Source: Minisyncoccota bacterium | GTDB taxonomy: Bacteria > Patescibacteriota > Minisyncoccia > Phycocordibacterales > UBA6899 | Assembly: GCA_035583355.1 (NCBI GenBank) | Contig: DATEZQ010000012.1 | Location: 24,683 to 88,682 of the forward strand | DNA: 64,000 nucleotides | Reading direction: 5' to 3' | Shown: one piece after another, positions 23,471 to 63,958 of the stretch | Layout of the letters: every line of letters starts with the position of its first letter | Position numbering within the stretch: the first letter of the stretch is position 1 | Notes under the pieces: generated by a model | The model's database searches: none | What the model was told of the DNA's origin: nothing | What the model saw: the letters and a program-made list of their open reading frames with translations, nothing else | Translations under genes and position numbers: made by a program

Positions 23471-23568
23471 AGAGGCATGTTAGCACAATATCCCAATAAT
23501 CAAAAACAAATATTGTGTGCTAAAAAACTCATATTTGTACACATTGTGCGCATGCCAAGACTCGAACT

Positions 23569-23692
23569 TTCTCGTCTTTACCCGTGAACGACTCAGCGCA
23601 GCTGAATCGTGAGTTGATAGCCGCACGGTGGCGCGACCTTGTCGGGCAAGCCAGCCCCGGTGCCCGAAGGGCCTGGCTTTTCAGTGATGCGC
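23569..23692 (-). ncRNA. structured repeat element, copy A (unclassified family)
   Basis: Shares the core GTCGCGCCACCG(Y)GCG(K)C(W)ATCAACTC plus downstream hairpins with copies B (23756-23850) and E (26871-27010). Hairpin stems differ by compensatory changes. Confidence 0.35.
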
Positions 23693-23755
23693 AAATAAAA
23701 AAGCCTTAAATAGATTCATTGATTTACAAGGTGCGCATGCCAAGACTCGAACTTG

Positions 23756-23850
23756 GGACCTCGTTTTACTGGATAGGGCTAGTGCGCAGCAATAGCCCGA
23801 GTTGATTGCCGCGCGGTGGCGCGACCTTGACCAGCAAGCGAGCCTGGTGT
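23756..23850 (-). ncRNA. structured repeat element, copy B
   Basis: Same conserved core. Hairpin GGGCTA-TTGCTGCGCAC-TAGCCC versus AAGCCA-CTGCTGCGCAT-TGGCTT in copy E, indicating covariation. Confidence 0.35.
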
Positions 23851-23883
23851 AAAGAAAAATCCCTATCAAATATTTATGTTCAA

Positions 23884-23959
23884 GGTGCGCATGCCAAGAC
23901 TCGAACTTGGGACCTCGTCATTATCAGTGACGCGCTCTAACCACCTGAGCTACACGCGC
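23884..23959 (-). tRNA. tRNA-Ile (anticodon GAT)
   Basis: The reverse complement folds as a cloverleaf. Acceptor GCGCGTG/CATGCGC, D-arm GCTC-AGGTGGTTA-GAGC, anticodon arm CGTCA-CTGATAA-TGACG, T-arm CCAAG-TTCGAGT-CTTGG, discriminator A. Confidence 0.8.
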
Positions 23960-24010
23960 ACTTTGAACACAAATATTTAATTGGGATCGATTTTTCTTTA
24001 CCTCGCTTTT

Positions 24011-24047
24011 CAGTGACGCGCTCTAACCACCTGAGCTACACGCGCAC
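24011..24047 (-). other. tRNA-Ile(GAT) 5'-half fragment (acceptor 5' strand to anticodon loop)
   Basis: 37 nt identical to positions 1-37 of the adjacent tRNA-Ile, followed by diverged sequence (CACTGAAAAGCGAGG). Confidence 0.6.
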
Positions 24048-24217
24048 TTTGTAAACCAATGAATATATTTAAGACCTAAATCACTCGCTTTCGCGTAGAG
24101 GCAATATACCAAAAATTCAGTGGAAACGCAATAGGTAAAGGCGCAATTCAGGATTACCCTTGACGCACTAATCTGGTCTGTTATGGTTAAAACAGAACTT
24201 CACCACAAGGAGTCCAT

Positions 24218-24553
24218 ATGGACAACCCCTCACTGCTCCTTTCAGGACTTCGCCTCAACAAAGCCCTCCAAGTTTGTGCTCCCGAAGAGCACAAAGCACT
24301 ACACCGAGCGATTGAAAAATTACTCGAAAGTGCAGGCCTCGAGCGCCCTCCCGGGAAAGAGTATGTCGTCACACTGACTGAAATACTCACCACGAGAGAA
24401 ATCACTGGGTCAGTTCGTGGAATGGTGACACTCGACCTTGCGCTCGACGGATTCTTCGATGCGCTCTTCAAGTTTACCCAGAACCGCTCGGACATCAGCG
24501 CGCTTTGCTGCGCTATCGGCCTCTACCGCTCGCGGATCAATCCGCGATCCTAA
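24218..24553 (+). CDS. hypothetical protein
   Basis: 111-aa ORF with AAGGAG RBS, followed by intrinsic terminator 24550-24583. Confidence 0.45.
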   Translation: MDNPSLLLSGLRLNKALQVCAPEEHKALHRAIEKLLESAGLERPPGKEYVVTLTEILTTREITGSVRGMVTLDLALDGFFDALFKFTQNRSDISALCCAIGLYRSRINPRS

Positions 24554-24583
24554 TCAAAAGCCCCATACGTGGGGCTTTTTCTC
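24550..24583. terminator. bidirectional rho-independent terminator
   Basis: aaagccccatacgtggggcttttt hairpin between convergent ORFs. Confidence 0.6.
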
Positions 24584-24585
24584 TA

Positions 24586-25044
24586 TCACGAACGAATGAT
24601 GAGTTCCGGGAATTGTGCTTGTACGAGCGCTGCAGTGCGCTTGCGATTTTCTTCTGCACCAAACTCACTACTCTTACCTTGCACCGCCCACTGCATATCT
24701 TTATCAACATAGGGATCGATCTTTTCAAAATAGCCTCCACCAATACAAGTCACCTTCTCACCCAATTCACCCCCAAGGATATTTACAATATCAGAGTGCA
24801 ATTCTGCCCTCCTGCGCGGAAGCGTAGCAAACAACTCTTCTCCTGTTGCTGTGCGTACAATAACATACTTCCCATCCACAGGCCCCTCATCCTCTTCTGC
24901 AAAATGATAAAAACTAAGCTCGGGCACTACCTCCTTCACTTCGTGCTTCACGTCCTCCTCTGCATTAAGCATCTGCCCTTCAGACACCTCTTCATTTCCT
25001 ATTCTTTCCATCCTGTAATTGTAGCATATACGGTTATTGTGCAT
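24586..25044 (-). CDS. hypothetical acidic protein
   Basis: 152-aa ORF (the alternative start MERIGNEE is 11 codons in); no recognised domain. Confidence 0.35.
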   Translation of the reverse strand: MHNNRICYNYRMERIGNEEVSEGQMLNAEEDVKHEVKEVVPELSFYHFAEEDEGPVDGKYVIVRTATGEELFATLPRRRAELHSDIVNILGGELGEKVTCIGGGYFEKIDPYVDKDMQWAVQGKSSEFGAEENRKRTAALVQAQFPELIIRS

Positions 25045-25137
25045 ACAAATTCTCGCTAGCCAAAGTACACACTTTGCTTGACATTTAATACAACTATGTC
25101 ATAATTTCCATAGACCACATTTCAACAAGGAGACACC

Positions 25138-25545
25138 ATGTCCACCAGTGATTCGCCCGCTCTCGTCAACACAAGGGATTTCCTCGCCAAGCAAGTTCGT
25201 GCACTGCTCATCTGCCTCGCCGTGCTCACAGCAATCCTCCTCCTCGGTCGACCCGACGGAAGGCATCTTTTCCTGCTGGCGCTCTGGGGATTCACCATGT
25301 TTTTTACCTTTAGCGCGACGGCCGGCTTCATCGCAAATCTCATCTCCATCACAGTCCTACTGACTGGCGGAGAAGTGCATCGTAAGACGATACATGCGTT
25401 CACTGCGATTCTGTCTGTCTTCATCGCAATCACTGCGAGCGTGCTGTTCACTACCCTCCTCGGGAAACCAGCTAACCCCACAATCGCCTTCTTCATGATC
25501 ATCTTCGCGGAGCTCGCTGCACACATCAGTGCATTTCAGGACTAG
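25138..25545 (+). CDS. hypothetical membrane protein
   Basis: AAGGAG RBS and three to four hydrophobic helices. Terminator caaaaacgcccacccgggcgtttttt follows at 25555-25585. Confidence 0.45.
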   Translation: MSTSDSPALVNTRDFLAKQVRALLICLAVLTAILLLGRPDGRHLFLLALWGFTMFFTFSATAGFIANLISITVLLTGGEVHRKTIHAFTAILSVFIAITASVLFTTLLGKPANPTIAFFMIIFAELAAHISAFQD

Positions 25546-25609
25546 CTCCCCCTCCCCAAAAACGCCCACCCGGGCGTTTTTTCTTTTACACTCTCTTCGA
25601 CATTATGAC

Positions 25610-26680
25610 CTAATCGCCCGTATCATACTTTTCGAGATACGTATTTAGTTGTCTGTTAACCATGATGAAGGTTGCGCGCTTTGGGAGCTCCTTGAGGAAG
25701 CTTGCGCCAAGATAGGTTGCAGTGCTACGCAACGCACCAAGGAGATCCTGAACGAAAATATGCAGATCTCCCTTGTGGGGAAGCAGTACATAGCGCCCCT
25801 CGCTCGCACGATGCGCATCTTTTTTCCCATAATGTTCGATCATTGCCTTATTTGAAGAGGAGCCGAAATACTCCTTATAGAGCTTTCCATTCTTCTCGAC
25901 TGTTTCTCCCCCACTCTGTTCAAATCCTGAAAAGAGTGAGCCGCACATATTGAAATCAGCACCACCACAAAATGCTTTTGCGATGTCGGAGATATATTGC
26001 TGTCCGCCATCGGCAATGATTCTCCCCACTCCTTGTGCATTTCGAATACCGTGCGCTGCATCCGCGCATTCAATGACCGCAGAGAGTTGCGGATAACCGA
26101 CACCGGTCATGCGCCTAGTAGTACATGCGGCACCTGAGCCAATACCTACCTTAACGATATCCGCACCCGAGAGAATGATCTCTTCAGCCATTTCGTTGGT
26201 CACGATATTCCCTGCGACGATGATATGTTCAGGAAACATTGCACGCACTGACTTGATCGCATCGATGAAACGCTGCAAATATCCATTGGGCACGTCGAGA
26301 CAAATGAATGAAAAATTCTTCATGAGACCAGCGGCATCCATATCGCGGAGTTTCTGCATGTCTTCGTCTCGTATACCTAGGCTGTACGCAACATAATCAG
26401 GGTTATTGAATTGAGCAAAGAATTCCTTGAAATCATCCACCGTATAATACTTATGGAACGTTGTAATGATCTTATATTCTGAGAGCACCCTCGCCATCTC
26501 AAATGTCCCCGAAGAAGCCATGTTTGCGGTCATGATCGGCATACCAGTCCACTCCTTTGGCGAATGATAGAACGTAAACGTTCGCTCCAGTACAACGTCC
26601 TTTCGTGATTCGAGTGTACTTCGCTTTGGCTTGAGGAGTACATCTGCGTAATCCAACTTCATGTCATTATCTATGCGCAT
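25610..26680 (-). CDS. guaC: GMP reductase
   Basis: Near-collinear similarity to GuaC (MRIxxDxKLxxxDVLxxPKRSTLxSRxDVxLERxFTF ... GADIVKVGIGSGAACTTRRMTGVGYPQLSAVIECADAAHG). Confidence 0.8.
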   Translation of the reverse strand: MRIDNDMKLDYADVLLKPKRSTLESRKDVVLERTFTFYHSPKEWTGMPIMTANMASSGTFEMARVLSEYKIITTFHKYYTVDDFKEFFAQFNNPDYVAYSLGIRDEDMQKLRDMDAAGLMKNFSFICLDVPNGYLQRFIDAIKSVRAMFPEHIIVAGNIVTNEMAEEIILSGADIVKVGIGSGAACTTRRMTGVGYPQLSAVIECADAAHGIRNAQGVGRIIADGGQQYISDIAKAFCGGADFNMCGSLFSGFEQSGGETVEKNGKLYKEYFGSSSNKAMIEHYGKKDAHRASEGRYVLLPHKGDLHIFVQDLLGALRSTATYLGASFLKELPKRATFIMVNRQLNTYLEKYDTGD

Positions 26681-26870
26681 ATATCGCCATTATAGCAGTT
26701 GCGGCAAAAGAAAACATGTAAAAACCTACCGCAATCATGAAATACAACATGTAAAGCCCCCATTCATCGAGTATTTAAATATTTGAAAATTTCAAAAATT
26801 TAATAAAAACCATCCAGTTCTTCCCTACTTTGAATCTAGGCGTATGCAAGTACTTGATCAATTCTTGATG

Positions 26871-27010
26871 TCTACCCGTGAACGACTCAGCGCATGAAAT
26901 TCTCTATCGGAAAAAGCCAATGCGCAGCAGTGGCTTGAGTTGATAGACGCGCGGTGGCGCGACTCCTACCGGTATCAGCGCCTGGTGCCGAGTTCTCGAG
27001 GCCGCTGATA
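26871..27010 (-). ncRNA. structured repeat element, copy E (in 16S downstream spacer)
   Basis: Same core and loop motif CTGCTGCGCA. It shares TGCGCTGAGTCGTTCACGGGTA with copy A. It is present in only one of two duplicated spacer units. Confidence 0.35.
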
Positions 27011-27384
27011 TTGCCTCATTTTACTTCAAATAGCGAGACGTTCCCAAAGGGAACGCCCCGAGCGTTGAGAATTCCCATAACCAATATTTAAACATTTGAA
27101 AATTTAAATATTTAACAAAAAGAAAAACACCCTTCCGGGTATTTCTTTACATTGACTACTGAGTGTTACGCAAGTTCTTAATCAATTCTTGATTCACTAT
27201 CAAGATAAGGTTGGAGAATATAAAATTCTCTATTGCCTCATTTTACCCCCTCGCTAACGTATTTGCGAGGAAATCCGACGTGCGACACCAGCACGTTAGG
27301 TCATGACTTAAATGGAATTTCATGATATCCATGTTTCTTGAAGAAACAATCGACGATCAGTGATCATATAAATATGAATCACGC

Positions 27385-28898
<1,514 letters not shown>

Positions 28899-29417
28899 TA
28901 ATTAAAAGTAAAATGAGACAAGAGAGAACTTTCTTTCTTGACCCAACTTTCAATGCTCTTGATTATTACTGTGTTATCGATTACTCGATTTCTCAAAACT
29001 GGAATTACAAATTGATTATGAAATTTGTTATTTTGGTCATTGCCTTTCGTATTACTCATACGGCAGGTTTGACCAGGATCTTGCGTAACACTCAGTTGTC
29101 AAAGTTCTTTACGTCTTTTCGGGGTTTTTGCTTTCGCTGAACTTCGATTGACGTAAGATGCAGTATATACGAATGCCAGGAATAGTCAAGCGATTTCTCC
29201 CCTTTCTTTTTACTGCCCTAGGACTTTATCACACTGAAATACCTATGTCAATACCTTTCTGTTAGTCACTCTATAGAGTACTTTCATAAGCATACTGACT
29301 GACCATTTGAACCACCCTACGCACCTGCATTTCCTCTCCATATATATGTATGTTTGCTGGTGCAAATTCCATGCAGCTGAGCATGAGAAAAACAAAAAGA
29401 ACGCTCATGCGTTCTTT

Positions 29418-31054: not shown

Positions 31055-31100
31055 AATATACGTATATATTATAACATAAGAGAACGAGGAATATGATACA

Positions 31101-31265
31101 AATGCGAGGGAATAAGGGGATAAGGGAATGAGGTTATGAGGGTATAAGGCAAACATAAAAACTTCATACGCTTAGCGCATGAAGTTTTATACTGTCTAAA
31201 AATTGTATTTATTTCAAACCTTATCCCCTTATTCCCTTATTCCCTTATTCCCTTATTCCCTTGGA
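31101..31265. repeat. imperfect inverted repeat flanking a hairpin, with tandem 8-mer (cccttatt) x4-5
   Basis: gagggaataaggggataagggaatgagg (31101-31128) versus ccttatccccttattcccttattcccttattcccttattccc (31221-31262). The central hairpin is aaaacttcatacgcttagcgcatgaagtttt. Confidence 0.5.
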
Positions 31266-31278
31266 TTTAGTCTTATCC

Positions 31279-36409: not shown

Positions 36410-37609
36410 ATGACGACAAAGACCGCGCAATGTGACAACTCCATTGTAGCAAACATTAGCGAATATGCCTTGCGCTCACGTTTTGAATATATATTCATTA
36501 TATGGTATGCTCTCCCCTATATGCTATTGTTTTCACTTGAACTCACATTCCTCATCATATTCGCAATTTTGCAGCTCCCACAGTTTGGAAAAGCACCTGG
36601 CGGAAGGCGCAAGAGTCGCATGCTACAGTCAGAGAACTATAAACGCGGGAAATTCCACAATCTTGAACCGACTCCGATGATGATCAAGACCGGTGACCAA
36701 ATCGACATCTTCAAGAAATTCTTTTTCAAGAACGTGGGCGATGCGAAACCAAAGACGCGCATGCCGGGAGTAAAGATTGATCTCCATGCATTCGACCCAA
36801 AAGCGAACGTTATGGTCTGGTTCGGACACTCCTCGTATTTCATCCAACAAGATGGGAAGCGTTTTCTCATTGACCCCGTACTTTCGGGATATGCGTCACC
36901 CTTCTCCTTTGCGGTGAAGAACTTCGCAGGTTCAAACGAGTACAGTGCTGCAGATATTCCCGACATTGATTATCTCGTCATCACTCATGATCATTACGAC
37001 CACCTCGATTATCACACTGCAAAAGCACTCAAGGGTAAAGTGGCCATGATCATCACAGGGCTTGGTGTTGGTGCACACCTCGTACACTGGGGATATAAAG
37101 AGTCGCAGATTAAGGAACTCGACTGGCATGAAGAGCTAAAACTTGATGAAGGATTCACCATCCGTGCACTTCCCTCCCGTCACTTTTCGGGCCGTACGTT
37201 CTTCCGCAATCGCACGCTCTGGTGTGCGTTTGCACTCAGTACCCCTAACAAGAAATTCTTCCTTGGTGGCGATGGTGGGTATGGCAAACATTTCAAGATG
37301 ATCGGAGAAAAGTACGGACCATTTGATGTTGCAATACTTGAGAATGGGCAATATAACGAGAGCTGGCGCTACATCCATGCGATGCCCGAAGAGACTGCAC
37401 AAGCGGGGCTCGACCTTGGCGCAAAACTCCTTATGCCTGTCCACTGGGGTAAATTCATCCTTTCTATTCACAGCTGGGATGAACCGATCCGCCGCATCAC
37501 CAAAGCAGCAACTGCAAAAAACATTCCCCTCCTCACTCCCCGCATCGGAGAGAAGATCAACCTCGACCACCCCGCACATACGCATCCTTGGTGGGATGAA
37601 GTAAAATAA
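36410..37609 (+). CDS. MBL-fold metallo-hydrolase (Lactamase_B_2 / NAPE-PLD-like)
   Basis: HDHYDHLD zinc-binding motif and conserved QFGKAPGG N-region. The true start may lie downstream of an N-terminal TM at 36533. Confidence 0.65.
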   Translation: MTTKTAQCDNSIVANISEYALRSRFEYIFIIWYALPYMLLFSLELTFLIIFAILQLPQFGKAPGGRRKSRMLQSENYKRGKFHNLEPTPMMIKTGDQIDIFKKFFFKNVGDAKPKTRMPGVKIDLHAFDPKANVMVWFGHSSYFIQQDGKRFLIDPVLSGYASPFSFAVKNFAGSNEYSAADIPDIDYLVITHDHYDHLDYHTAKALKGKVAMIITGLGVGAHLVHWGYKESQIKELDWHEELKLDEGFTIRALPSRHFSGRTFFRNRTLWCAFALSTPNKKFFLGGDGGYGKHFKMIGEKYGPFDVAILENGQYNESWRYIHAMPEETAQAGLDLGAKLLMPVHWGKFILSIHSWDEPIRRITKAATAKNIPLLTPRIGEKINLDHPAHTHPWWDEVK

Positions 37610-37874
37610 AACCAAGACAAGCGGCCGCAAGGTCACTTGTCTTGGTTTTATATTTGGGTTTGTATCTACTATCTTCCAATTTTACTTATTCCAAAAATAT
37701 GCTAAAGTAACACCACAAAAGCAAGGAATAACCGACCTTATTCAACCGATTGCTATTTGGAGGAAACAATGCGTGGAATTGCTAAAGTGGTCGCGACGAC
37801 CACTCAGCCACTCTGCTATTTACCTTCCTCGTTAGCGGTACTTTCGCAAGAAAGCGCAGGCTAATAAAATATAC

Positions 37875-37961
37875 GGAGACGTGGCTGAGTGGTCGAAAGC
37901 ACCTCACTGCTAACGAGGCATCCCTTTACCGGGATCATGAGTTCGAATCTCATCGTCTCCG
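37875..37961 (+). tRNA. tRNA-Ser (anticodon GCT)
   Basis: Acceptor GGAGACG/CGTCTCC, anticodon loop CTGCTAA, long variable arm (ATCCC-TTTACC-GGGAT), T-arm ATGAG-TTCGAAT-CTCAT, discriminator G. Confidence 0.8.
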
Positions 37962-38020
37962 CAAAAAGAAAAACAACACGCAAGTGTTGTTTTTCTTTTT
38001 GCGGAGACGATGAGATTCGA
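37940..38020. repeat. 81-nt perfect palindrome spanning the tRNA-Ser 3' end, a terminator hairpin and an inverted copy of the tRNA 3' end
   Basis: gttcgaatctcatcgtctccgc + gcaaaaagaaaaacaacac-gcaa-gtgttgtttttctttttgc + gcggagacgatgagattcgaac. Confidence 0.7.
37959..38003. repeat. 43-bp direct repeat DR-left (second copy 39657-39704)
   Basis: gcaaaaagaaaaacaacacgc(a/g)agtgttgttttt(c/g)ttttt is about 40/43 identical between the two copies. Together they bracket a 1.65-kb two-gene module. Confidence 0.55.
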
Positions 38021-38023
38021 ACG

Positions 38024-38200
38024 GATAGGGGTCGGGAAAGGAAGCCCTTTCCCGTCTAGGAGAGCAGGAACCCCTCTTCCCCGAAGAGGGGTTCCGTCGA
38101 GAACCGTGGGTTCTCGAAGCCTTTGGCAGCGCGAGGCTCCTCCGGAGTGCGCCAGCCAAAGGCTGTGAGATTCTCACCCCTTATTAAACAAAAATCTGTC
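38024..38200. ncRNA. GC-rich multi-hairpin element (candidate small RNA or island-border element)
   Basis: Consecutive near-perfect hairpins: gggaaagg-aagc-cctttccc; ggaacccctcttc-ccc-gaagaggggttcc; tcgagaacc-gtg-ggttctcga; gcctttggc...gccaaaggc. The GC content is far above that of the adjacent AT-rich island. Confidence 0.3.
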
Positions 38201-38246
38201 ACTAGTAGCTCTCCAATTCTCTTAGTCTTAACTAGCCTCCTTGCCT

Positions 38247-38690
38247 CTATGAAATCACTTCTTCCACAATTCTTCCGTCTCTATAAACCCAGACGACGTG
38301 CACGCATCTTTTAAGTACTCCAACGAAGATGCCAATTTGGTAATTTAGATTTCTGTAACTCCTTATTTTATTGATATCCGCTACCCCCAATATTGAGCTC
38401 GGGGAGCATTTTTTTATTTCAAATATTGCAAGATTGCGTTCATTTGAACCTCTTCTGTGAATTATTATATCAGGTCGAACAACTGTTCCATCATCATTCA
38501 TTTTTGGTCCAGCTAAGCTTTTGCTATATTCACAGTCTATGTTAAATTCTTGCCCAAAATTACTTTCTAGATACAGAGCAATCCTATGGCTCAGGGTCGG
38601 CTCGTAGATTTTTACATTCATTAGTTCTACCCAGTCATTATCCATAAATAATCGAATTGCGGAACGAATTCCATTTTTTGTATCCTCCAT
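38247..38690 (-). CDS. hypothetical protein with PD-(D/E)xK-like motif
   Basis: 147 aa. RPDIIIHRRG...NLAIFEIKK fits hD-x(n)-E-x-K of restriction-endonuclease-fold nucleases. It lies in AT-rich DNA. Confidence 0.35.
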   Translation of the reverse strand: MEDTKNGIRSAIRLFMDNDWVELMNVKIYEPTLSHRIALYLESNFGQEFNIDCEYSKSLAGPKMNDDGTVVRPDIIIHRRGSNERNLAIFEIKKCSPSSILGVADINKIRSYRNLNYQIGIFVGVLKRCVHVVWVYRDGRIVEEVIS

Positions 38691-38694
38691 ATTA

Positions 38695-39471
38695 CTAGTT
38701 TTCTAATTTGACATATTTCTCTAGTTCAAGTGCAGCATCTCTAATCCCAGATATTTCATATATTAAATCACTGAGTCTATATATCATATCTGATGTTGCC
38801 ACAGACCACTGTTCGCACTGCTTACTCTGGAGGCTCCACAATTCTTTCTCTTTATCTAGGTTTTCTACGGCCTTCTCTTCCTTCTCCCTCAATAATATAT
38901 TTGCGTAATCCCAGTTAATAGTGTCTTTCAATCCATCTGAATGAAGGATCGAACTAAAGTTTTTTAGAATTTCTACCTCAGTAGCAGGTGCATTTATGTA
39001 GTAGCCAAAATCTCCCTTATTACCACCATGCTTATGATTGTTGCCAATATCTGTTATAGGTTTAAATTGAATATCTATTCTATCAATAAGTCCATTTAAC
39101 GACTCAACAACTTCCTCATCACGAGGGATATTCTTTTTAATAAATTTGATAAATCTTAATAATCTTTCTTTATATGCATACACATCAGCATAATATGAGT
39201 GAATATGGTATTGGAGAGCGTCTCCATCAGGTATTGCATCCAGTTCAACGTAAAAGTATTTAAAATATACAGTATACTTTTTTAATTTATTTTCGAACCA
39301 TTCGATTTCAGTTAATCTGTTTATACACTCATTTATATTAACTGTGTTAACGGTCAATAAAAGTGGTCTAATCTTCTGATTGATTTCTGAGATCATATAT
39401 TCTGTTCCCACATTCGTATCTCTAGATATTGAAAGTATACTTTTTATTCTTTGCAAGTGGCTTATTAACAT
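38695..39471 (-). CDS. hypothetical protein
   Basis: 258-aa ORF in AT-rich DNA. It lies 4 nt upstream of, and in a different frame from, the PD-(D/E)xK-like gene; no known domain. Confidence 0.35.
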   Translation of the reverse strand: MLISHLQRIKSILSISRDTNVGTEYMISEINQKIRPLLLTVNTVNINECINRLTEIEWFENKLKKYTVYFKYFYVELDAIPDGDALQYHIHSYYADVYAYKERLLRFIKFIKKNIPRDEEVVESLNGLIDRIDIQFKPITDIGNNHKHGGNKGDFGYYINAPATEVEILKNFSSILHSDGLKDTINWDYANILLREKEEKAVENLDKEKELWSLQSKQCEQWSVATSDMIYRLSDLIYEISGIRDAALELEKYVKLEN

Positions 39472-39656
39472 ACTTAAATTCTATCATGTACTTGCATAAT
39501 CTAAAGTCTAGAATTATTGCGCACCAATCTATTGAATTAGAAGTGCTACGGCCTTTTTGAAAGTGTGGCTAGAAATACCGACCCGCGAGCCTCATAAAAC
39601 GGATCAATATAATCCAAAATAACCTTACAGTACCTACGCCCACGATTACCTCACTC

Positions 39657-39704
39657 ATATGGCCTGCAAAAAGAAAAAACAACACGCGAGTGTTGTTTTT
39701 GTTT
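39657..39704. repeat. 43-bp direct repeat DR-right
   Basis: See DR-left. Confidence 0.55.
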
Positions 39705-39797
39705 TTCCACAGAATCCAATTAATACGAATACCCTCCTTGTTCAGAAACAGCAATTAAATACTTAAGGAATAAAATATTTCACGTACACAGAGAGTT

Positions 39798-41564
39798 CTA
39801 ATCAATTTCACTGTATACGACTTCCCTAAGGAATCTATCTTTTCGAGTAAACGTTGCCCTGGTATGCGCCTGTATGTCGAGCTTGATTTCTTTAGTCCTC
39901 TCTTCATTCTCAATTTTATCCCTATTTAACGTAAGAATATATTGAAAGTTTGACTTTTCCTCTTGCTCTGCGAGAAAATTAAGGCTCTGCACTAGCGTAT
40001 CTTGGTCCACATCAAAAATATTATCATGCACCAATATTGATGGATGTCGCTTCTTCGTATGATTATTAATCATCAATGCAATGTCATAAATAAATACCTT
40101 TTCCCTATCAACGCTATGACTCCCATCTTCAGGAATACGAAAATCGAATTGAACAATTTTTTTACCCTTACCAGACTTTACCGCGGATATATCAAAAGTA
40201 ATTTTGGCATTGCCCATTATATACGAGTGAATATCAGCAAGTGTCCTGTTGAAATCATCGATAACGCTGTTGTAGGACATTATTTCATCTTCAAGGGCAG
40301 ACACGTAGCCATCTCTCTTGCGTTTTAAGACGTTTATCTCATACTCAACACTCTCATGTTCACGCAAATTTGCTTGAGTAATTGATAAATTTTCTTTCCT
40401 CCTAGACATTAATGCGTAACTTTCTTTTAATGAATCAAGGGAACCATTGAAATTTATCATCACAAGCAATGACGACCTTCTCGCGTCTAAAACACTCAAA
40501 CGACTCTGGATTTTTTGCACCTCACTTCTAATCTCGTGAGCACGACCGTCTATAAGGATCTTTTGATAATTCTCAATTTTTTGCTTAAACGCGACAACAT
40601 CACTAATTGACCTTGCAACCAAATCACCAAGCCCCTTTGCAAATTTGTTATACACAAATTGAACTTCGCTAGTATCAATAATTTCCAACTTAGGTATAGA
40701 TTCAATTCTCTGAAGTTCAAACCTTAATGCCGCCCTCTTAATTCGCAGCTGTTCACATTCTAAATCAATATTCCCAAGCTCCTCTTGGTTATTTTGGAAA
40801 ATTGGTTCCATCTTATATTCATCAAGAAGTGAGTTTATTTTTCCGAGCTCAAGCTCAGAATCATTAACTTCGGCCTTGATGTCAGAAATATTTTGATTCC
40901 CAGAACCAGTCAACCTTTTTGTAATATGATTTTTAGTTTTCTGCTTTTCATCAATTTCCTTAAATACCTTTTTTATTCTCCTTATATAGCTAGGATTAAT
41001 TCCGAAAAGGTATAAATGTGGCTTGGTGAGATCTTGGTCAGGGATCTTTTCCCTCAAATCGTAGCAATTTAAAATACTCTTAAATTCTGAATCCTCAGAC
41101 CGTATTAATGGGCCCATAAACTCTCTGAAACTCGGCCTTTCTATATCATCTCCTGAATTGCTGAAAAGCAAATTTCCTAGGTAGGTAGTCGCATCTGCCA
41201 TATTCTTAAACTTTGTAATCTGGCCCTCACATACAATTTCCGGCTTATTCGGCTCTTTTATGGTTCTCCTCAATGTTAACTCCTTCCCGCCGATTGAAAC
41301 GTCAAGACAAATTATTGCGTTATGCGAAAATTTATCAAGCGGGATTTTCATAACCCTGCTATCACTCGAGTCCTTTAAAAGGCAAAAGTTGATAAATTCG
41401 ACTGAGAGCGACTTTCCGACTCCATTTGTTTTTTTATCCTTCCTGGACGTAGACCTTGATTCTGAATCCGGGACCTTCTCTCCAAGAATAATATTTATAC
41501 CATCATAAAAACTGATGGGCTTGAAAGTCTCTGGTTGGCTATATAGCTTATGTAGACGAATCAT
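39798..41564 (-). CDS. SMC/ABC-type ATPase (ABC-three-component-like / DUF2326-like) with coiled-coil insert
   Basis: N-terminal P-loop KKTNGVGKSLSVEF (xxNGxGKS), then about 300 aa of coiled-coil-like sequence. The C-terminal region has a Walker-B-like SILVHDNIFDVD with D-loop. The start overlaps the upstream stop. Confidence 0.5.
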   Translation of the reverse strand: MIRLHKLYSQPETFKPISFYDGINIILGEKVPDSESRSTSRKDKKTNGVGKSLSVEFINFCLLKDSSDSRVMKIPLDKFSHNAIICLDVSIGGKELTLRRTIKEPNKPEIVCEGQITKFKNMADATTYLGNLLFSNSGDDIERPSFREFMGPLIRSEDSEFKSILNCYDLREKIPDQDLTKPHLYLFGINPSYIRRIKKVFKEIDEKQKTKNHITKRLTGSGNQNISDIKAEVNDSELELGKINSLLDEYKMEPIFQNNQEELGNIDLECEQLRIKRAALRFELQRIESIPKLEIIDTSEVQFVYNKFAKGLGDLVARSISDVVAFKQKIENYQKILIDGRAHEIRSEVQKIQSRLSVLDARRSSLLVMINFNGSLDSLKESYALMSRRKENLSITQANLREHESVEYEINVLKRKRDGYVSALEDEIMSYNSVIDDFNRTLADIHSYIMGNAKITFDISAVKSGKGKKIVQFDFRIPEDGSHSVDREKVFIYDIALMINNHTKKRHPSILVHDNIFDVDQDTLVQSLNFLAEQEEKSNFQYILTLNRDKIENEERTKEIKLDIQAHTRATFTRKDRFLREVVYSEID

Positions 41565-41782
41565 ATCTTGAAAATATAAGGCTCCGAAAAATCAACTACT
41601 CCAGATTGATATAGAAATATCAAAGTAAAAATCAATTGGCGATGATTAACTAAACCAACTTGATCTTTCAAACTCAAAACAAGCTCATCGAGGGTGATTT
41701 TTTTTCTTTTTTGAATTCTCTTCAAAATAAGAAACCCTAGATAAGGGGGCGAAACTCCTATTTTTTCATCTTTTGTAATCAT
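41561..41782 (-). CDS. small hypothetical protein (73 aa), middle gene of three-gene cassette
   Basis: Both ends overlap its neighbours by 4 nt (ATGA), indicating translational coupling. Confidence 0.4.
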   Translation of the reverse strand: MITKDEKIGVSPPYLGFLILKRIQKRKKITLDELVLSLKDQVGLVNHRQLIFTLIFLYQSGVVDFSEPYIFKI

Positions 41783-42738
41783 GGAGCGTTCGGGAAAACA
41801 TTACACTTCACCAATTCGTCGAGTAAGTAAAACCTGATTGCCTGATAATCATACTTTTTCTTTGAATTTTTGGAAATTTCATTCTCGAAATATTCAGTGA
41901 GATTAACAAGTGCAACCTCCGCATCCCCATCAGCCTGGGTAAGAAAATCATCACTTCTAATTCGTAGAAAATTCCTCATATACTCGACCTTGGCAGTATC
42001 AAGGCCTAAGGCTCTATCGACTTCAACTCTTGCTGCGCAGTAAATAGGAAGAAGAGAGACTAGTTGCGATTTTAGAAATTCAGATTTCGAAGAGAATCGC
42101 TGCTCGATTTTCCCCTGAGGGTCTGGCTCCTCGCGATACTGTCCATTCGTTAATTCCTTTTTTTCACTAATGTACAGAACCAAATCTGCGATAGTCTCAA
42201 CCTCAGATGCAATTTTGTTTTCAGTTTTAGAATGAGAGCCACCCGAAAATTCCTCCTCAAAAATTTGTAAAATCCTCATGATCTCCCCAGGGGATCCTTT
42301 TGCCCGAACTAAACCTAAGATATCTGTCAAATCCATAATATCCCCTGAATCAAACTTTATTCCTTTAGGGGCAGTAATTGATTTAATTTTACGCTTTTTA
42401 TCTGCAATAATAATAAATTTCAATGTATCATACGAGGAAGAAAGCCCATTGGCGTCAAAAGCTTTTATTGTTTTATCAATTTTTGTTTTACTATTCTCGG
42501 ATGTAACTTGAACGGAAACGCGTTTCTCTTCATCCCCCAGGTCAATAGAGGGGAAGTTCATTCTTAGAATATTTTTATTTTCGAGATTTAAAGCGAGAAT
42601 TTCATTAAGCAGGCGACAGAAAAAATCTTCTAGGTGACTATTTATATCCGTTAGGCCATTTCCATTACTTATCTTAGTTTGCACTTTTATGCGAGCAAGA
42701 TATGCTGTCACCTCATTAATTAAATCTTGCCTATCCAT
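41779..42738 (-). CDS. SMEK-like domain protein (first gene of cassette)
   Basis: The N-terminal region EVTAYLARIKV...LTDINSHLEDFFCRLLNEILALNL...MNFPSIDLGDEEKRVSVQVTS resembles, from memory, N-termini annotated as SMEK domain in ABC-three-component-type conflict systems. Confidence 0.35.
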   Translation of the reverse strand: MDRQDLINEVTAYLARIKVQTKISNGNGLTDINSHLEDFFCRLLNEILALNLENKNILRMNFPSIDLGDEEKRVSVQVTSENSKTKIDKTIKAFDANGLSSSYDTLKFIIIADKKRKIKSITAPKGIKFDSGDIMDLTDILGLVRAKGSPGEIMRILQIFEEEFSGGSHSKTENKIASEVETIADLVLYISEKKELTNGQYREEPDPQGKIEQRFSSKSEFLKSQLVSLLPIYCAARVEVDRALGLDTAKVEYMRNFLRIRSDDFLTQADGDAEVALVNLTEYFENEISKNSKKKYDYQAIRFYLLDELVKCNVFPNAP

Positions 42739-42843
42739 GCTGCAATTATATCATAATTGAAATTGAATTCTCCTTAGCACGTAGTAATATTGTCGAAAAA
42801 ACCGCCAACGCGGTTTTTATTACCTCTTGCATCCTCCTACTCT

Positions 42844-43443
42844 TCAAAAAGTCCCCGTCTTTACTTCTCCAACACGCTCATAGTTAGCAAAGATCACTCC
42901 GCTCGGGGAAACCTTACTGTCTGTGAGCTTAAAGGCTGCAGGAATCGTCCCCTCAGCGAAAAGACGTTTACCTGTGCCCAGGGTAATTGGGAATATTTTT
43001 AGCCAGAGTTCATCAACCAAGTCGTGCTTCCAGAGAGTCTGGGCAAGGTTGCCACTCCCGTACACATGCAGATCGGGACCATCTTGTTTCTTTAGTTCCT
43101 GAATTTTTTCAACCACAGAAGCACCCGAAATCACTACTGAATTTTCCCAAGTTGGATCAAAGAGTGAATGCGATACAACATACTTTTTCATCGTATTTAT
43201 CCCCTGCCATCCATCCGCATGTGTCGGCCAATAGGAAGCAAAGATGTCGTACGTTTTCCTCCCCAAGAGAAGCTCTGATGGTCTGTTCATCTGCTCTGCC
43301 ATAACCGCGTTCCCCAATTCATCAAAATAGGGGACGGTCCAACCGCCGTACTTGAATCCACCGGAAGTATCTTCCTGCGGCCCTCCCGGAGCCTGCATAA
43401 CACCATCGAGTGTTATAAATGTTAAAACAATAATTTTTCTCAT
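42844..43443 (-). CDS. dihydrofolate reductase family protein (RibD C-terminal domain-like)
   Basis: MRKIIVLTFITLDGVMQAPGG...GGWT...LLLGRKTY pattern of YwjB/RibD_C family. Confidence 0.65.
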   Translation of the reverse strand: MRKIIVLTFITLDGVMQAPGGPQEDTSGGFKYGGWTVPYFDELGNAVMAEQMNRPSELLLGRKTYDIFASYWPTHADGWQGINTMKKYVVSHSLFDPTWENSVVISGASVVEKIQELKKQDGPDLHVYGSGNLAQTLWKHDLVDELWLKIFPITLGTGKRLFAEGTIPAAFKLTDSKVSPSGVIFANYERVGEVKTGTF

Positions 43444-43516
43444 ATATATTGACTGCGCTACATTGATAAAAAGGCTTTGAAAGAGACGAGGCTCCTTACA
43501 ATCCGCTCACTGCTCT

Positions 43517-43756
43517 CTACTTCCTCCACCTCGGCGCAAACCTCACGAGCCACGTGAAAAACCTCGCCTTTATCTCCCCCACCCCATTAGCCCTCATCCC
43601 CTCATAACACCTCTTCTGAAACTCCTTCAAATCATTCCCCTCATAACAAAGCTTCCCATCCTTAAAACAATAACTACAATATTTATCACTCCCACTTACC
43701 CCAGGATCCTTGTCCAAAGGCATCAAGCAACTTTCACACATGGGTTTCTTTTTCAT
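43517..43756 (-). CDS. zinc-ribbon domain protein
   Basis: 79 aa with CESC...CSYC cysteine pairs. Confidence 0.4.
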   Translation of the reverse strand: MKKKPMCESCLMPLDKDPGVSGSDKYCSYCFKDGKLCYEGNDLKEFQKRCYEGMRANGVGEIKARFFTWLVRFAPRWRK

Positions 43757-43769
43757 ATGATTATTATAT

Positions 43770-43797
43770 CAAAAACCAGCACGAGGTGCTGGTTTTT
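43770..43797. terminator. conserved-stem terminator hairpin (AAAAACCAGCAC-loop-GTGCTGGTTTTT family)
   Basis: Other members: 47683-47709, 48866-48889, 49356-49390, 49989-50016. CAACAC variants: 37962-38002, 39660-39703, 51402-51428, 52367-52394. Confidence 0.55.
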
Positions 43798-45571: not shown

Positions 45572-45851
45572 ACAAGTTATCTGTTCTCGTGGACACGAAT
45601 TCACCAAAACACCTGCGACTCCTGTCTGTCCTATCTGCTGGCCCGGATACAAAAAGAATCAACGCATAGACCTCCCTACCGACCTCTCCGCTCCCGCATA
45701 TCGTGCACTGACCGATGCGAACATAACGACCCTCAAGAAACTTGCACAGTACACGGCAGAAGATATTCTTTCATTACATGGAATTGGACCGAGCTCACTC
45801 CCTAAATTGAAACGAGCCTTAGCAGAAAATAATCTTGCATTCAAGCAATAG
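45561..45851 (+). CDS. hypothetical protein (helix-hairpin-helix-like C-terminus)
   Basis: 96 aa; CxxGH...CPIC zinc-ribbon-like N-terminus and an LHGIGPSSLPKL HhH-like motif. Confidence 0.35.
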   Translation: MQSKQVICSRGHEFTKTPATPVCPICWPGYKKNQRIDLPTDLSAPAYRALTDANITTLKKLAQYTAEDILSLHGIGPSSLPKLKRALAENNLAFKQ

Positions 45852-51367: not shown

Positions 51368-51423
51368 TTTTTCTATTTTCGCATGATTTCGCCCTAGGAG
51401 CAAAAACAACACCGAAGTGTTGT

Positions 51424-60627: not shown

Positions 60628-60676
60628 TCCATCCAGCACGACTCGAACGTGCGACCGGCCGTGTATAACATCGGCC
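60628..60676 (-). other. partial tRNA 3' copy (anticodon arm through acceptor 3' strand), diverged from adjacent tRNA-Ile(TAT)
   Basis: TTATACACGGCC-GGTC-GCACG-TTCGAGT-CGTGC-TGGATGG parallels the 3' two-thirds of the neighbouring tRNA. It lacks a D-arm and a matching 5' acceptor strand. Confidence 0.45.
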
Positions 60677-60682
60677 ATTTTG

Positions 60683-60755
60683 TCCGCCCTGCAGGACTCG
60701 AACCTGCGACCAGTCGTGTATAAGACGACCGCTCTACCAACTGAGCTAAGGGCGG
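60683..60755 (-). tRNA. tRNA-Ile (anticodon TAT; AUA-decoding)
   Basis: The reverse complement folds as a clean 73-nt cloverleaf. Acceptor CCGCCCT/AGGGCGG (C1:G72), D-arm GCTC-AGTTGGTA-GAGC, anticodon arm GTCGT-CTTATAC-ACGAC, T-arm GCAGG-TTCGAGT-CCTGC, discriminator A. Confidence 0.6.
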
Positions 60756-61012: not shown

Positions 61013-61699
61013 ATGGAAAATGACATTCAAACCCCACGCGACGAGGTGACCGAAACCTCATCAGTCGCACAGAGTCTCACTAAGGAGCTCGCTATTACGC
61101 GCATCACAAAGGAGTTCGCAGCACAGATTGCACGCGAGGTAACCGCAGCGGAGATTATTCTCTTTGCAGCAGCATTCGCTACATTGCCACTCATGGATTT
61201 CATTGCAAAGGCATTTGGCTCACTCGGTAGCGCAACACAAGTTCTGTATGCAATCGTTCCAGCAGCAGCATTTGCACTTGGCTACTGGTTCTCAAAGGAT
61301 AAAGTAACCGCGGTTGGAGTATTCCTCCATTCAATCGCTGCGATTGCACTCCTCATGGCCGCAATCGCACTCCTTCCTATGGTTCCAGGAATGCAGCAGG
61401 TACTCACTGGTCCAGGCACCATCGCACTTGGCATGCCAATCTTGACCTTTATCTTCCTTTTCGCAGCAGCACGTGTACCAAACACAGGCGCAAGCTACAT
61501 CTTTGCTTCTATCGCAGCAATGATGATCTTCTTCCTTTCTGCAGCACAGCTCCTTGGCATTCCATGCAACAATGCACTCCTCAGCAACTCAGATAAGGCA
61601 GCACAGATCTGTTCTGCAACTCCTTATGTCCAGAACACACTCATCCCTGTAGCGATCTTCATCCTTGGCTACTTCACGTTCCAAGCAAAGAAGGCATAA
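61013..61699 (+). CDS. hypothetical membrane protein
   Basis: 228 aa, about five TM helices, followed by a terminator at 61700-61738. Confidence 0.4.
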   Translation: MENDIQTPRDEVTETSSVAQSLTKELAITRITKEFAAQIAREVTAAEIILFAAAFATLPLMDFIAKAFGSLGSATQVLYAIVPAAAFALGYWFSKDKVTAVGVFLHSIAAIALLMAAIALLPMVPGMQQVLTGPGTIALGMPILTFIFLFAAARVPNTGASYIFASIAAMMIFFLSAAQLLGIPCNNALLSNSDKAAQICSATPYVQNTLIPVAIFILGYFTFQAKKA

Positions 61700-61735
61700 T
61701 AAAAAATAACCACTCATGTGAGTGGTTATTTTTTA

Positions 61736-63958
61736 TTATTGATTCATATCATTACGCTTCACCCGCTTTTGCGTTCGTGACGCATTTGGGGTAATAGTGT
61801 GTTCCACTGAATCATGACGTACAACAGGTACGACCGGTTGTTCTCCGGGAGGGATGACGTGCTCCTCTGGTGCGCGCTCTACCGCCTCTGGAGTAGGTAC
61901 TTCATCCACTGAGGCAGATTTAATGACCTGCGTGCGCTCATTTTTTGCGGGTGCGATTGGCTTCGCTACACCAGCAATACCGCTACGCGAAATCAAATAT
62001 GCTTCTTCACCATGGCGCTTCTTTGGACGAATGCCTGAGAGAATAAGAATCTGCTCGTACTCTTCACGCTCCATCGTCTCCTTCTCCACAAGTGCAGTCG
62101 CGATTGCATCAAGTACGTTCTTATACTGCGCAAGAAGTGCACGCACGCGCTTTAATTGTTCATTCATGATACGCGACACCTCAGAGTCTATGCGAGATGC
62201 AACCTCTTGAGAGTAATCACCGTCATATCCTCTGCGGTTAAGCATCGGTACTCCACCTTGTTCAAAGGCAACGGGCCCAATGAGTGCGGACATGCCGTAC
62301 TTCGAAACCATGTCTCGTGCAAGATTTGTCGCAACCGCAAGATCATTTGATGGACCAGTAGTAAGGTCATCGAACATCATCTCCTCAGCGACATATCCCC
62401 CAAGTGACACTGCAATATCATCGAGAAATTCGTTACGCGTATGGAAACGACGTTCCTCTGTGGGAAGCTTGAGTGTATAACCCGCAGCATGGCCACGAGA
62501 AATGATTGAGATCTTATGGACAGGATCAGCATACGGAAGCAGTGATGCAACAAGTGCATGACCTCCCTCGTGATACGCAGTCACCTTCTTCTCATCCTCA
62601 GAGAGAATATGACTCTTACGCTCTGGACCAATCATTACCTTCTCTATCGAACGAATGAAGTCGAACTGTGCGACATGCTTGCGATTCTCTCGCGCAGCCA
62701 AGATTGCTGCTTCATTCACGAGCGAATAGAGGTCAGCCCCTGAGAATCCAGGTGTACGCTCTGCAACCGTACGCAGCACCACATCTTCTGCGAGTTTCTT
62801 GTTACGTACATGGACGCCGAGAATTTCCTCACGGTCCGCAAGATCAGGAAGATCGAGCGTCACGCGACGATCGAAGCGACCGGGACGGAGCAGCGCAGTG
62901 TCGAGCACATCAGGGCGATTCGTTGCAGCCATGACGATAACTTTTTCGTTTGGCTCAAAACCATCCATCTCAACGAGGATCTGATTGAGCGTTTGCTCGC
63001 GCTCATCATTACCACCACCCATACCTGCACCACGCGCACGACCTACGGCATCGATTTCATCAACGAAGATGATGGCGGGAGCCTCTTTCTTTGCAAGACG
63101 GAAAAGGTCACGTACGCGACTTGCGCCGACTCCGACAAACATTTCAACGAACTCCGAACCAGAGAGATGGAAGAATGGTACCCCTGCCTCACCTGCAACT
63201 GCACGCGCAAGCAACGTCTTTCCTGTTCCTGGTGCGCCCATGAGCATGACACCCTTTGGAATCTGCGCACCAATATCGAGGAACTTCTTCGGCTCTTTAA
63301 GGAAATCCACGATCTCTCGCAATTCCTCCTTCGCCTCCTTCGCACCTGCGACATCTGCAAAGGTGATGCGCTGCGCAGTATCATCAGGATAGATGATGCG
63401 TGCCTTGCTCTGACCAAATGAGAATGCCTGCATTGGACCTCCTTGTTTTGACTGTCTCGTCATGAACCAAAGAATTCCAAAGAGAAGTAGTATAGGGAAA
63501 AGGAATGGCGCAAGTGCCATGAACCAATATCCAAATCCAGATGGCTCTACAAGCGTGAGTTTGAATGTCGCAAGATCCTCAGCAGTAAGGCCGAAGTTCT
63601 TGAACGTCTCAGTGAGTGATGACTCGAGCTCTTTCTTTGCAGTCTTCTCGATAGACTTTCCTGTAGCGGGATCACTCTCGTGATAGATAACGGTAAGTGC
63701 GTCACCATCTACCTTCACTTCACTCACTGCCTGATGATGAATATCAAGAGCAAGCTGCGAAAGCGGAATGACACTATTATCTGCCGTCTTACGATGATCC
63801 GTAAAATATGAATATCCCCAAGCAAAGAGGAGGAATACGATAATCAAGGTCAACAAATTCGAAAGAAAAGGAGCGGGGGTCGGAAGCTGCGGCTGCTTGC
63901 CATTTCCATCTTCACCCTGCCCCTTTTTCATTGGGTTTGGTAGCTGCATATGTGGCAA
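61736..63958 (-). CDS. ftsH: ATP-dependent zinc metalloprotease FtsH
   Basis: Two N-terminal TMs, AAA module ([17 protein letters not shown], second region of homology) and zinc-binding HEGGHA. Confidence 0.9.

Follow-up and report, generated by a model that had tools for sequence, protein, structure and literature searches.

The closest described relatives of the locus reported here are the tRNA-linked islands made by tyrosine-integrase elements, such as the Prochlorococcus tycheposons and their cargo-only remnants. In these islands deviant and variable cargo lies directly downstream of a tRNA gene, partial tRNA copies stand at module boundaries, modules are stacked at one site and blocks of identity start in the T-loop; partial tRNAs scattered in such islands are a known signature of repeated integration (bioRxiv 10.1101/2020.12.28.424599). 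We analyzed a 64-kb stretch of DNA (contig DATEZQ010000012.1, positions 24,683 to 88,682; hereafter the window) from a metagenome-assembled genome (MAG) of Candidatus Paceibacterota, which belongs to the candidate phyla radiation (CPR); the assignment follows the NCBI name of the identical metallo-beta-lactamase (MBL)-fold protein. In the window an AT-rich island with defense genes follows a tRNA-Ser(GCT) gene, and a conserved structured element of ~180 bp (38001–38177) lies between the gene and the island. All of the tycheposon features named above recur here. We regard the locus as a variant of tRNA-linked integration hotspots, and its notable part is this element, not the 41-nt repeated hairpin that an earlier annotation made from the same DNA (the first-pass annotation) had taken for a duplicated attachment (att) site.

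In contrast to tycheposons, no integrase gene was found near the locus, its distal end lacks a tRNA-derived direct repeat, and the copy next to the tRNA is in inverted orientation. The modules measure only 0.9–3 kb, and a four-hairpin element lies between the tRNA-derived sites. Measured against a classical tRNA-integrating island, it shows the tRNA-adjacent position, the deviant composition and the variability among relatives, but neither an integrase (Pfam annotation of island and flanking genes; crude motif scan) nor a distal attR was found. It also resembles integron attC cassettes and XerC/D pdif modules: small cargo units, promoter-bearing or promoterless, have structured sites between them, the structure of the sites is better conserved than their sequence, the cargo consists of defense genes and the recombinase would act in trans. 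As in pdif modules, the sites alternate in orientation. Unlike an integron, the locus has no intI (by Pfam annotation and a crude motif scan) or attI, holds only one to two cassettes and is linked to a tRNA gene. By eye, the element ends TTCGAAC and GTTCGAT each have one mismatch to the attC motifs RYYYAAC and GTTRRRY and occupy the inner, not the outer, position of the stem; unlike attC, the element is ~180 bp long with four internal hairpins and is not a single bulged hairpin. Miniature inverted-repeat transposable elements (MITEs) and sequences like the repetitive extragenic palindromes (Correia, ERIC) are comparable in being non-coding and ~180–200 bp long, in their terminal inverted repeats (22 bp here; 20/22, 91%, in copy c1 of the relative L086 described below) and in strong secondary structure. 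No target-site duplication was seen by inspection; the 64-kb window has one copy, and the 21 kb of L086 have two. Unlike in MITEs, the terminal repeats copy the neighboring tRNA, and the copies differ by compensatory changes, not by random decay.

Results

The tRNA-Ser(GCT) palindrome and the structured element

Relatives were collected by a contig scan with the metallo-beta-lactamase (MBL)-fold protein encoded at 36410–37609, which returned one CPR relative and 79 irrelevant Bacteroidota loci. The CPR relatives compared are L004 and L086 (same species, MBL protein 70–72% identical) and two short contigs. Assemblies of the same strain as the window (L001–L003) break at the palindrome described next and gave nothing further. 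Unitigs from short reads are interrupted at this palindrome, but its sequence is the same in three independent assemblies. The features that follow the tRNA gene are:

37875–37962, plus strand: tRNA-Ser(GCT) gene (ARAGORN; Rfam tRNA, 57.5 bits), CCA not encoded
37941–38022, no strand: perfect 82-nt palindrome, consisting of tRNA segment X, a bidirectional terminator hairpin and inverted X
38001–38177, no strand: conserved structured element, ~180 bp, bounded by tRNA-derived inverted ends (from its fold and its conservation in L086)
38001–38022, no strand: inverted X, copy of the tRNA-Ser 3' segment
38033–38054, no strand: hairpin P-a, perfect, GC-rich
38067–38095, no strand: hairpin P-b, perfect, GC-rich
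38097–38117, no strand: hairpin P-c, perfect, GC-rich
38119–38163, no strand: hairpin P-d, perfect, GC-rich
38165–38177, no strand: direct copy of the T-arm, decayed (GTGAGATTCTCAC); forms a T-arm-like hairpin, loop shortened

The repeat search gave palindrome arms of 39 nt each (37941–37979 and 37984–38022), 100% complementary around a 4-nt loop. The outer 22 nt of the arms are nt 67–88 of the tRNA (segment X, 37941–37962) and their exact reverse complement (inverted X, 38001–38022); no shuffle gave such a match. Segment X starts at the last T-stem base, takes in the T-loop and ends at the discriminator plus one. The inner 38 nt (37963–38000) are an A-tract/stem/T-tract hairpin, and the palindrome is perfect over 82 nt because the inverted tRNA-end copy abuts the bidirectional terminator of the tRNA. 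The first-pass annotation had recognized both the inverted repeat of the last 22 nt of the tRNA beyond the terminator hairpin, which is exact, and a perfect palindrome, which it placed at 37940–38020 with 81 nt; the perfection holds, and the length and coordinates are corrected here. The same layout is present in L004 and L086. The inverted 22-nt copy agrees 22/22 with the tRNA in both lineages and the terminator between the arms has diverged, which means only that the copy is maintained, by selection or by intra-palindrome correction. We found no description in the literature of an inverted tRNA-end palindrome or of the 38001–38177 element.

The region 38023–38177 is GC-rich, lies between the palindrome and the island and has a fold z-score of -10.5. 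In L004 and L086 the tRNA-Ser gene is followed by the terminator, the inverted 22-nt tRNA end, four hairpins and a direct copy of the tRNA end (20/22). Their inverted copy is exact and includes CCA, which is encoded in their tRNA gene. The unit is thus bounded by 22-bp tRNA-derived inverted repeats. In the comparison of the stems between the window and the relative, 92% of 64 pairs are paired and 10 show double (compensatory) changes, against 4.0 ± 1.6 in column shuffles (0/500 reach the observed number) and 0–2 in slid controls. Six of the 15 pairs of P-d are compensated. Conservation extends to the loops and linkers of P-c and P-d and is not limited to the stems. Two open reading frames (ORFs) cover parts of the element (37950–38177, minus strand; 38123–38314, plus strand), and we rejected coding DNA as an explanation on the ground that the copies differ by 2-nt indels and compensatory stem changes. 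The GC-rich DNA at 38023–38177 and the decayed T-arm copy, both outside the account given by the first-pass annotation, carry the real evidence of recombination.

A replacement hotspot and a mosaic element

By tblastx, window positions 27.1–38.19 kb are collinear with 0.66–12.64 kb of L086, and collinearity resumes at 43503 (L086 15634) and at 45660 (L086 17053). The cargo between these flanks is a two-gene unit, an ABC-3C operon and a RibD_C gene in the window, and a different ABC-3C operon on the opposite strand in L086 (effector 28% and ATPase 24% identical to those of the window); the L086 insert is also AT-rich. The flanks are collinear and the cargo differs, and the tRNA-Ser(GCT)-linked site is therefore a replacement hotspot for defense genes. 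The comparison with related genomes that the first-pass annotation had suggested thus gave different cargo at the same place between conserved flanks in both L086 and L004. A short remnant lies directly after the ABC-3C operon in L086 (15634–15732) and matches window 43503–43601, the 3' end of a Zn_ribbon_2 gene; the right edge of the variable segment is therefore inside or next to that gene.

The GC content is 0.29–0.40 across ~38250–42790 (an island of ~35% GC at about 38.2–42.8 kb) and 0.42–0.55 elsewhere in the window. The island starts ~230 nt past the end of tRNA-Ser, so that a position directly 3' of a tRNA gene and a deviant composition are both found. Proposed earlier from the sequence, an island boundary at the tRNA gene is supported by the foreign-looking, AT-rich defense cargo and by the relatives (L086/L004), which are collinear on both sides with other cargo. 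The AT-rich DNA reaches beyond the two-gene module, as had been noted, and we measured the low-GC tract to ~42790.

L086 contains two copies of the element in 21 kb, c1 and c2 (c1 at 11566–11757, c2 at ~12455–12652), which are 895 bp apart. Between them is AT-rich DNA with a gene for a 104-aa GIY-YIG protein; the ABC-3C operon comes after c2. The single copy in the window corresponds to the left part of c1 and the right part of c2. In the left part (terminator and inverted tRNA end) the window resembles c1, and c2 is degenerate there with a different terminator. From P-a/P-b rightwards the window is identical to c2 at 98/100 positions (alignment columns 121–220) versus ~75% identity to c1. The maximum chi-square method placed the breakpoint at window 38034–38036 among 100 informative sites, with counts of 30:11 to its left and 8:37 to its right; 0/10,000 permutations were as extreme. 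Near the breakpoint the three copies have only the block GATTCGA, the T-loop core, in common. With c1 matched leftwards and c2 matched at 98% rightwards, the 895-bp segment, made up of the right part of c1, the GIY-YIG gene and the left part of c2, is an insertion or deletion bounded by element copies, as expected from a single crossover with a circle that has its own copy, or from the reverse excision. At the right-hand end, window and c2 diverge inside the T-arm-like remnant, past GATTCTC, and unrelated island DNA follows in each, and c1 keeps a 20/22 direct copy of the tRNA end at its right-hand junction. Variable DNA thus joins the element at each of its two tRNA-derived ends. Although its sequence has diverged, the incoming copy keeps its hairpins, which argues that the hairpins matter, like the replacement tRNA ends of tRNA-targeting elements. 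More T-loop-like fragments are found in the GC-rich DNA of L086 from c1 to the GIY-YIG gene (11757–11900), CGAATCTCA in direct and TAGATTCGAAC in inverted orientation.

Possible mechanism and alternative explanations

The element marks, and apparently mediates, cassette exchange at a CPR defense hotspot. The explanation we favor, plausible though still tentative, is that the tRNA-derived ends are recombination sites for defense cassettes at the tRNA-Ser(GCT) hotspot and that the recombinase is supplied in trans. Small anti-phage cassettes would be gained, lost and replaced at this gene in the Paceibacterota lineage. The tRNA-proximal edge of the hotspot is the element, four perfectly paired GC-rich hairpins between two copies of the tRNA segment from the T-loop to the 3' end, the first inverted and the second direct and decayed. 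A recombinase encoded elsewhere would join circular cassettes to the chromosome at these ends, probably with the T-loop core GATTCGAA. In a Campbell-type single crossover a circle with its own copy of the element would integrate, and excision would be the reverse reaction; the exchange would presumably be site-specific rather than homologous. The hairpins may serve as binding sites for the recombinase or an accessory protein, or they may form a functional RNA that is restored by incoming cassettes. The T-arm is nearly symmetric (ATGAG-TTCGAA-T-CTCAT). In tyrosine recombinases a symmetric core removes the control of orientation, and the near-symmetric T-arm core could explain why sites occur in both orientations.

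A more far-reaching version is possible and on balance rather unlikely: the element would represent either an undescribed class of cassette-exchange site, integron-like and anchored at tRNA-Ser, or a new structured RNA with a 3' end that mimics tRNA-Ser. As a cassette site, each defense cassette would carry a structure-conserving copy of the site, and the trans-acting recombinase would read the symmetric T-arm core. As an RNA, the gene with the tRNA-mimicking end would be targeted and restored by mobile cassettes.

Several points weigh against exchange at tRNA-derived sites. Pfam annotation showed no integrase among the scanned ORFs that flank the island, among the genes downstream of it or over the 21 kb of L086, and neither the whole window nor L086 gave a match in a crude scan for tyrosine- and serine-recombinase motifs; the first-pass annotation had likewise seen no integrase gene in the island. 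At the distal island end (42.7–43.5 kb) there is no tRNA-derived repeat when up to 3 mismatches in 15 nt are allowed. The only direct copy of tRNA-Ser is the decayed T-arm at 38165–38177 on the proximal side, and integration of the large island itself is therefore undemonstrated. An inverted tRNA copy is unlike what classical tRNA-integrating elements leave, and a fold-back or template switch at the terminator hairpin could produce the palindrome without a recombinase. The window has a single copy of the element. Viral-contig scans and blastn against phages and plasmids did not recover the element, and a metagenome scan with a 22-nt conserved motif gave one chance match inside a coding region. 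Only two independent lineages are available; a deletion in that of the window explains the mosaic as well as an insertion in the other does. Purifying selection on a host element, instead of mobility, could account for the 98% identity to c2.

Among the alternatives, the one that survives best, although we regard it as unlikely, is that the element is a host non-coding RNA gene, read most naturally on the minus strand, beside which islands merely insert. Such an RNA would have four hairpins and a 22-nt mimic of the tRNA-Ser 3' end and would end at the same terminator as the convergent tRNA gene; two genes that converge with identical 3' ends on one bidirectional terminator would give the palindrome as a by-product. 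The very stable fold (z = -10.5), the compensatory changes between lineages and the ~98% identity of window and c2, whose proteins are only ~70% identical, are what such a gene would show. All three copies have the same minus-strand order (hairpins, tRNA-end-like segment, hairpin with a T-run), a coding function is ruled out by the 2-nt indels, and the incoming cassette of L086 brings a structure-preserving replacement copy, as elements that target functional genes do. The difficulties begin with family and strand. With Rfam 15 (including tmRNA, group I intron and IS605/IscB guide RNAs) only tRNA and 16S matches passed the gathering thresholds, and even at E ≤ 10 the 37600–38400 region gave no family, only spurious miRNA-hairpin matches to the palindrome. 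By sequence inspection, no promoter recurs upstream of all three copies. On both strands nearly all stem pairs are Watson–Crick (134/142 cells), and the wobble pairs, 3 on the minus and 2 on the plus strand, are unusually few for RNA and balanced, so they give no sign of which strand, if any, is RNA; the pairing fits a DNA-level palindrome at least as well as an RNA. The mimic has no T-stem and hence no tRNA-like domain: a tmRNA or a second tRNA on the minus strand was rejected, as ARAGORN was negative for either in the window and L004 and the T-stem is not formed. An RNA gene alone also fails to explain the two mosaic copies in L086.

Still less probable, in our judgment, is that all of this consists of non-functional scars. 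The palindrome would have arisen by a single fold-back or template switch at the terminator and been kept perfect by intra-palindrome correction, the GC-rich hairpins would be selfish or neutral palindromes like the repetitive extragenic ones, and the island variation would come from unrelated illegitimate recombination. The palindrome is indeed centered exactly on the terminator loop, all stems are perfect Watson–Crick pairs on both strands, no recombinase was found, and the inverted tRNA segment in L086 c2, displaced from the palindrome with the tRNA, has decayed. But the inverted and direct copies share their starting point in the tRNA, the T-stem base that borders the T-loop, which argues for a site-specific boundary. 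Conservation of the P-c and P-d loops and linkers, not of stems alone, is also unexpected for scars, as are variable DNA that abuts tRNA-like ends on both sides and a mosaic breakpoint that adjoins the T-loop core.

A recurrent terminator stem in place of an att duplication

The first-pass annotation had described a 43-bp direct repeat as a duplicated att site of a tRNA-targeting element, with 38001–39668 as one module between the repeats. The second copy exists, in direct orientation; the repeat itself is smaller, a 41-nt hairpin:

39666–39706, no strand: second A-tract/T-tract terminator hairpin, 38/41 identical to 37961–38000, 92 nt past the ABC-3C operon stop

The 38/41 match includes one gap; the direct orientation is favored (score 65 vs 55; loop GCAA vs GCGA). 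The stem, AAACAACAC-N4-GTGTTGTTT, has four copies in the window (37971, 39677, 51404 and 52369), and at 51404 and 52369 it directly follows the stop of an ordinary minus-strand ORF. The stem AACCAGCAC/GTGCTGGTT defines another family of the same size, at 43771, 47686, 49361 and 49989. Terminators of one family have an identical stem and differing loops. The window contains 40 perfect hairpins with a stem of at least 8 bp against ~4 expected, and most of them are symmetric A5-stem-T5 terminators. Given two recurrent stem families, this genome habitually reuses terminator stems. The 41-nt hairpin has the properties of an intrinsic-terminator family, namely a GC hairpin with a T-run, a position at gene ends and recurrence. 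Copy 2 scored as a terminator on both strands and stands 92 nt after the stop of the ABC ATPase gene. It is simply the terminator of the ABC-3C operon, drawn from a recurrent family.

In favor of an att duplication, this hairpin pair is the closest of its family (38/41 over 41 nt versus a ~22–25-nt core shared with the other two) and is directly oriented, and the bracketed unit is AT-rich and has its own promoter-like site. Against it, the stem is one of two recurrent families and has four copies in 64 kb, of which two follow ordinary genes; copy 2 stands at the place expected for the ABC-3C terminator. The similarity ends at the hairpin, and the flanks, in either orientation, align no better than shuffles (p 0.43–0.93, about 0.5). 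No part of the tRNA is duplicated: local alignment of the flanks in both orientations found no remnant of the tRNA 3' end before copy 2, and the far end of the island is without a tRNA-derived repeat. In the relative the hairpin repeat is absent, the hairpins at the corresponding positions being unrelated to each other, and the segment bracketed in the window opens with ~180 bp that are ancestral, conserved and not module-specific. The first-pass annotation had itself named a common genomic terminator as the outcome that would speak against its proposal, and the search for the repeat elsewhere, with four stems in 64 kb, largely gave that outcome. We consider an att duplication very improbable.

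Defense cargo of the island

The genes of the island and the signals around them are:

38247–38690, minus strand: 147-aa PD-(D/E)xK nuclease, PD-Lambda-3_A-like (PADLOC profile, motif and predicted fold)
38695–39471, minus strand: 258-aa all-alpha protein (AlphaFold2 pLDDT 92), no family assigned
39478–39505, minus strand: promoter-like site TTTAGA-16-TGnTAGAAT in front of the two-gene unit (consensus match only)
39798–42738, minus strand: ABC-3C defense operon, three genes with overlapping ORFs
39798–41564, minus strand: DUF2326 ABC ATPase (PF10088 E = 7e-24, above the cut-off; PADLOC PDC-M68B 7e-57)
41561–41782, minus strand: putative small middle component, 73 aa, 4-nt overlaps (MC6 E = 0.017, 15.5 bits, below the cut-off of 27.2)
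41779–42738, minus strand: SMEK_N effector (Pfam SMEK_N 1e-38)
42797–42818, minus strand: terminator hairpin of the RibD_C gene (42844–43443), where the low-GC tract stops; synteny with the relative is back only at ~43503

As in described ABC-3C systems, an SMEK_N effector, a putative small middle component and a DUF2326 ABC ATPase follow in order with overlapping ORFs. Unlike in those systems, the middle component matches MC6 below threshold and no C-terminal CTD family was detected in the SMEK effector of the window; the L086 counterpart carries CTD10.

The two genes of the neighboring module exist as first annotated. The PD-(D/E)xK-like motif seen earlier in the 147-aa protein is borne out by residues invariant in it and six homologs (P73-D74, E91 and K93), and the predicted fold is restriction-endonuclease-like, which places the protein in the PD-(D/E)xK superfamily. 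Residues 11–125 match the PADLOC profile PD-Lambda-3_A (E = 1.7e-14), as do the homologs P0125 and P0126. PD-Lambda-3 serves as an abortive-infection control (PMC13190303). The match to the component A profile is where the likeness ends: the 258-aa neighbor has no PD-Lambda-3_B match, and in the neighborhoods of homologs the pair does not co-occur elsewhere. Homologs of the 147-aa protein lie between hsdM and hsdS of type I restriction-modification operons, without the 258-aa partner (L088 5001–5486; L090 5001–5495; L091; L092). They come from Acidobacteria and metagenomic contigs, and some are beside GmrSD and Abi_C genes.

The 258-aa protein has no close relatives and ~60 remote homologs of ~240 aa. 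Y66, F70, H89 and H146 are invariant in the family and R143 and H148 are nearly so. No Pfam, PADLOC or NCBIfam family was assigned, and neither the protein nor 30 homologs had a PADLOC match at E < 0.1. The AlphaFold2 model (pLDDT 92) is all-helical. Fold searches for nuclease or toxin folds, as had been suggested for both proteins, succeeded with the 147-aa protein and returned only generic helical-bundle matches for the 258-aa protein, and so gave no support to the weak hints of HEPN or Csx1 that came from single members of its family. One homolog (41% identical) adjoins a retron-type reverse transcriptase.

Upstream region, other tRNA genes and further features

Two features lie upstream of tRNA-Ser:

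37680–37768, plus strand: non-coding block of ~90 nt (alignment with L004; also in L085, L086 and L087)
37786–37811, no strand: hairpin AGTGGTCG-CGA-CGACCACT, which extends to the exact reverse complement of tRNA-Ser nt 7–21 (37797–37811)

The ~90-nt block is near-identical across lineages whose proteins are 70–82% identical and may be a promoter plus leader. The upstream region of L086 (11106–11437) has two inverted sites of this kind, derived from the 5' part of tRNA-Ser, around a ~125-nt insert, and that of L085 (3430–3585) has the reverse complement of tRNA nt 1–21. A small ORF from 37770 (within the upstream region 37680–37868) is not conserved.

By ARAGORN and Rfam, the window holds a 16S rRNA gene and three tRNA genes. 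The tRNA-Ile(GAT) gene (23884–23959, minus strand; region 23546–24045) has exact direct partial copies of itself on both sides: nt 1–36 upstream at 24045–24010, and nt 42–76 at 23764–23730 and nt 52–75 at 23569–23546 downstream. A GC-rich spacer of ~120 nt follows the gene. This layout, a 5' fragment, the full gene and 3' fragments, is reminiscent of a tRNA gene interrupted by an element with an intact copy of its own. At 60640–60668 (minus strand), 13 nt past tRNA-Ile(TAT) (60682–60755), there is a degenerate direct copy of nt 33–61, from the anticodon towards the 3' end, with a compensatory change in the T-stem (GCAGG/CCTGC to GCACG/CGTGC). By analogy with the tRNA-linked islands cited above, these tRNA-fragment scars support lineage-wide activity at tRNA genes.

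The 16S rRNA gene (27389–28905, minus strand) and tRNA-Ile(GAT) are 3.4 kb apart (23959–27389 between them), and Rfam at gathering thresholds detected no 23S rRNA gene in the window; the rRNA operon is either broken up or unlinked. A covariance model of the element (R1) found no further copy in the window, and its 26-bit matches at 31.1 kb were rejected as an unrelated heptamer-repeat palindrome. At 31100–31268, where the GC content dips locally, a purine-rich ~7-nt repeat (AGGGAAT / AAGGGGAT versus CCTTATTCCCTTATT) forms two inverted arrays with arms of 50 nt that are 84% complementary and 69 nt apart. A perfect AT-rich palindrome with a 20-bp stem, a 4-nt loop and a GC content of 0.20 is present at 61696–61739.

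Discussion

A lesson for annotation is that a recurrent terminator stem can pose as an att duplication where genomes reuse terminator stems. The CPR/Patescibacteria have tiny genomes with few recognizable mobile elements, and their routes of gene exchange are largely obscure. At this locus anti-phage cassettes are exchanged at a tRNA gene without a local integrase. If the element is a recombination site, CPR bacteria would have a compact, integron-like way of shuffling defense genes, and a covariance model would provide a handle for such hotspots in thousands of MAGs. If the element is an RNA instead, it would be a new family with a tRNA-mimicking end.

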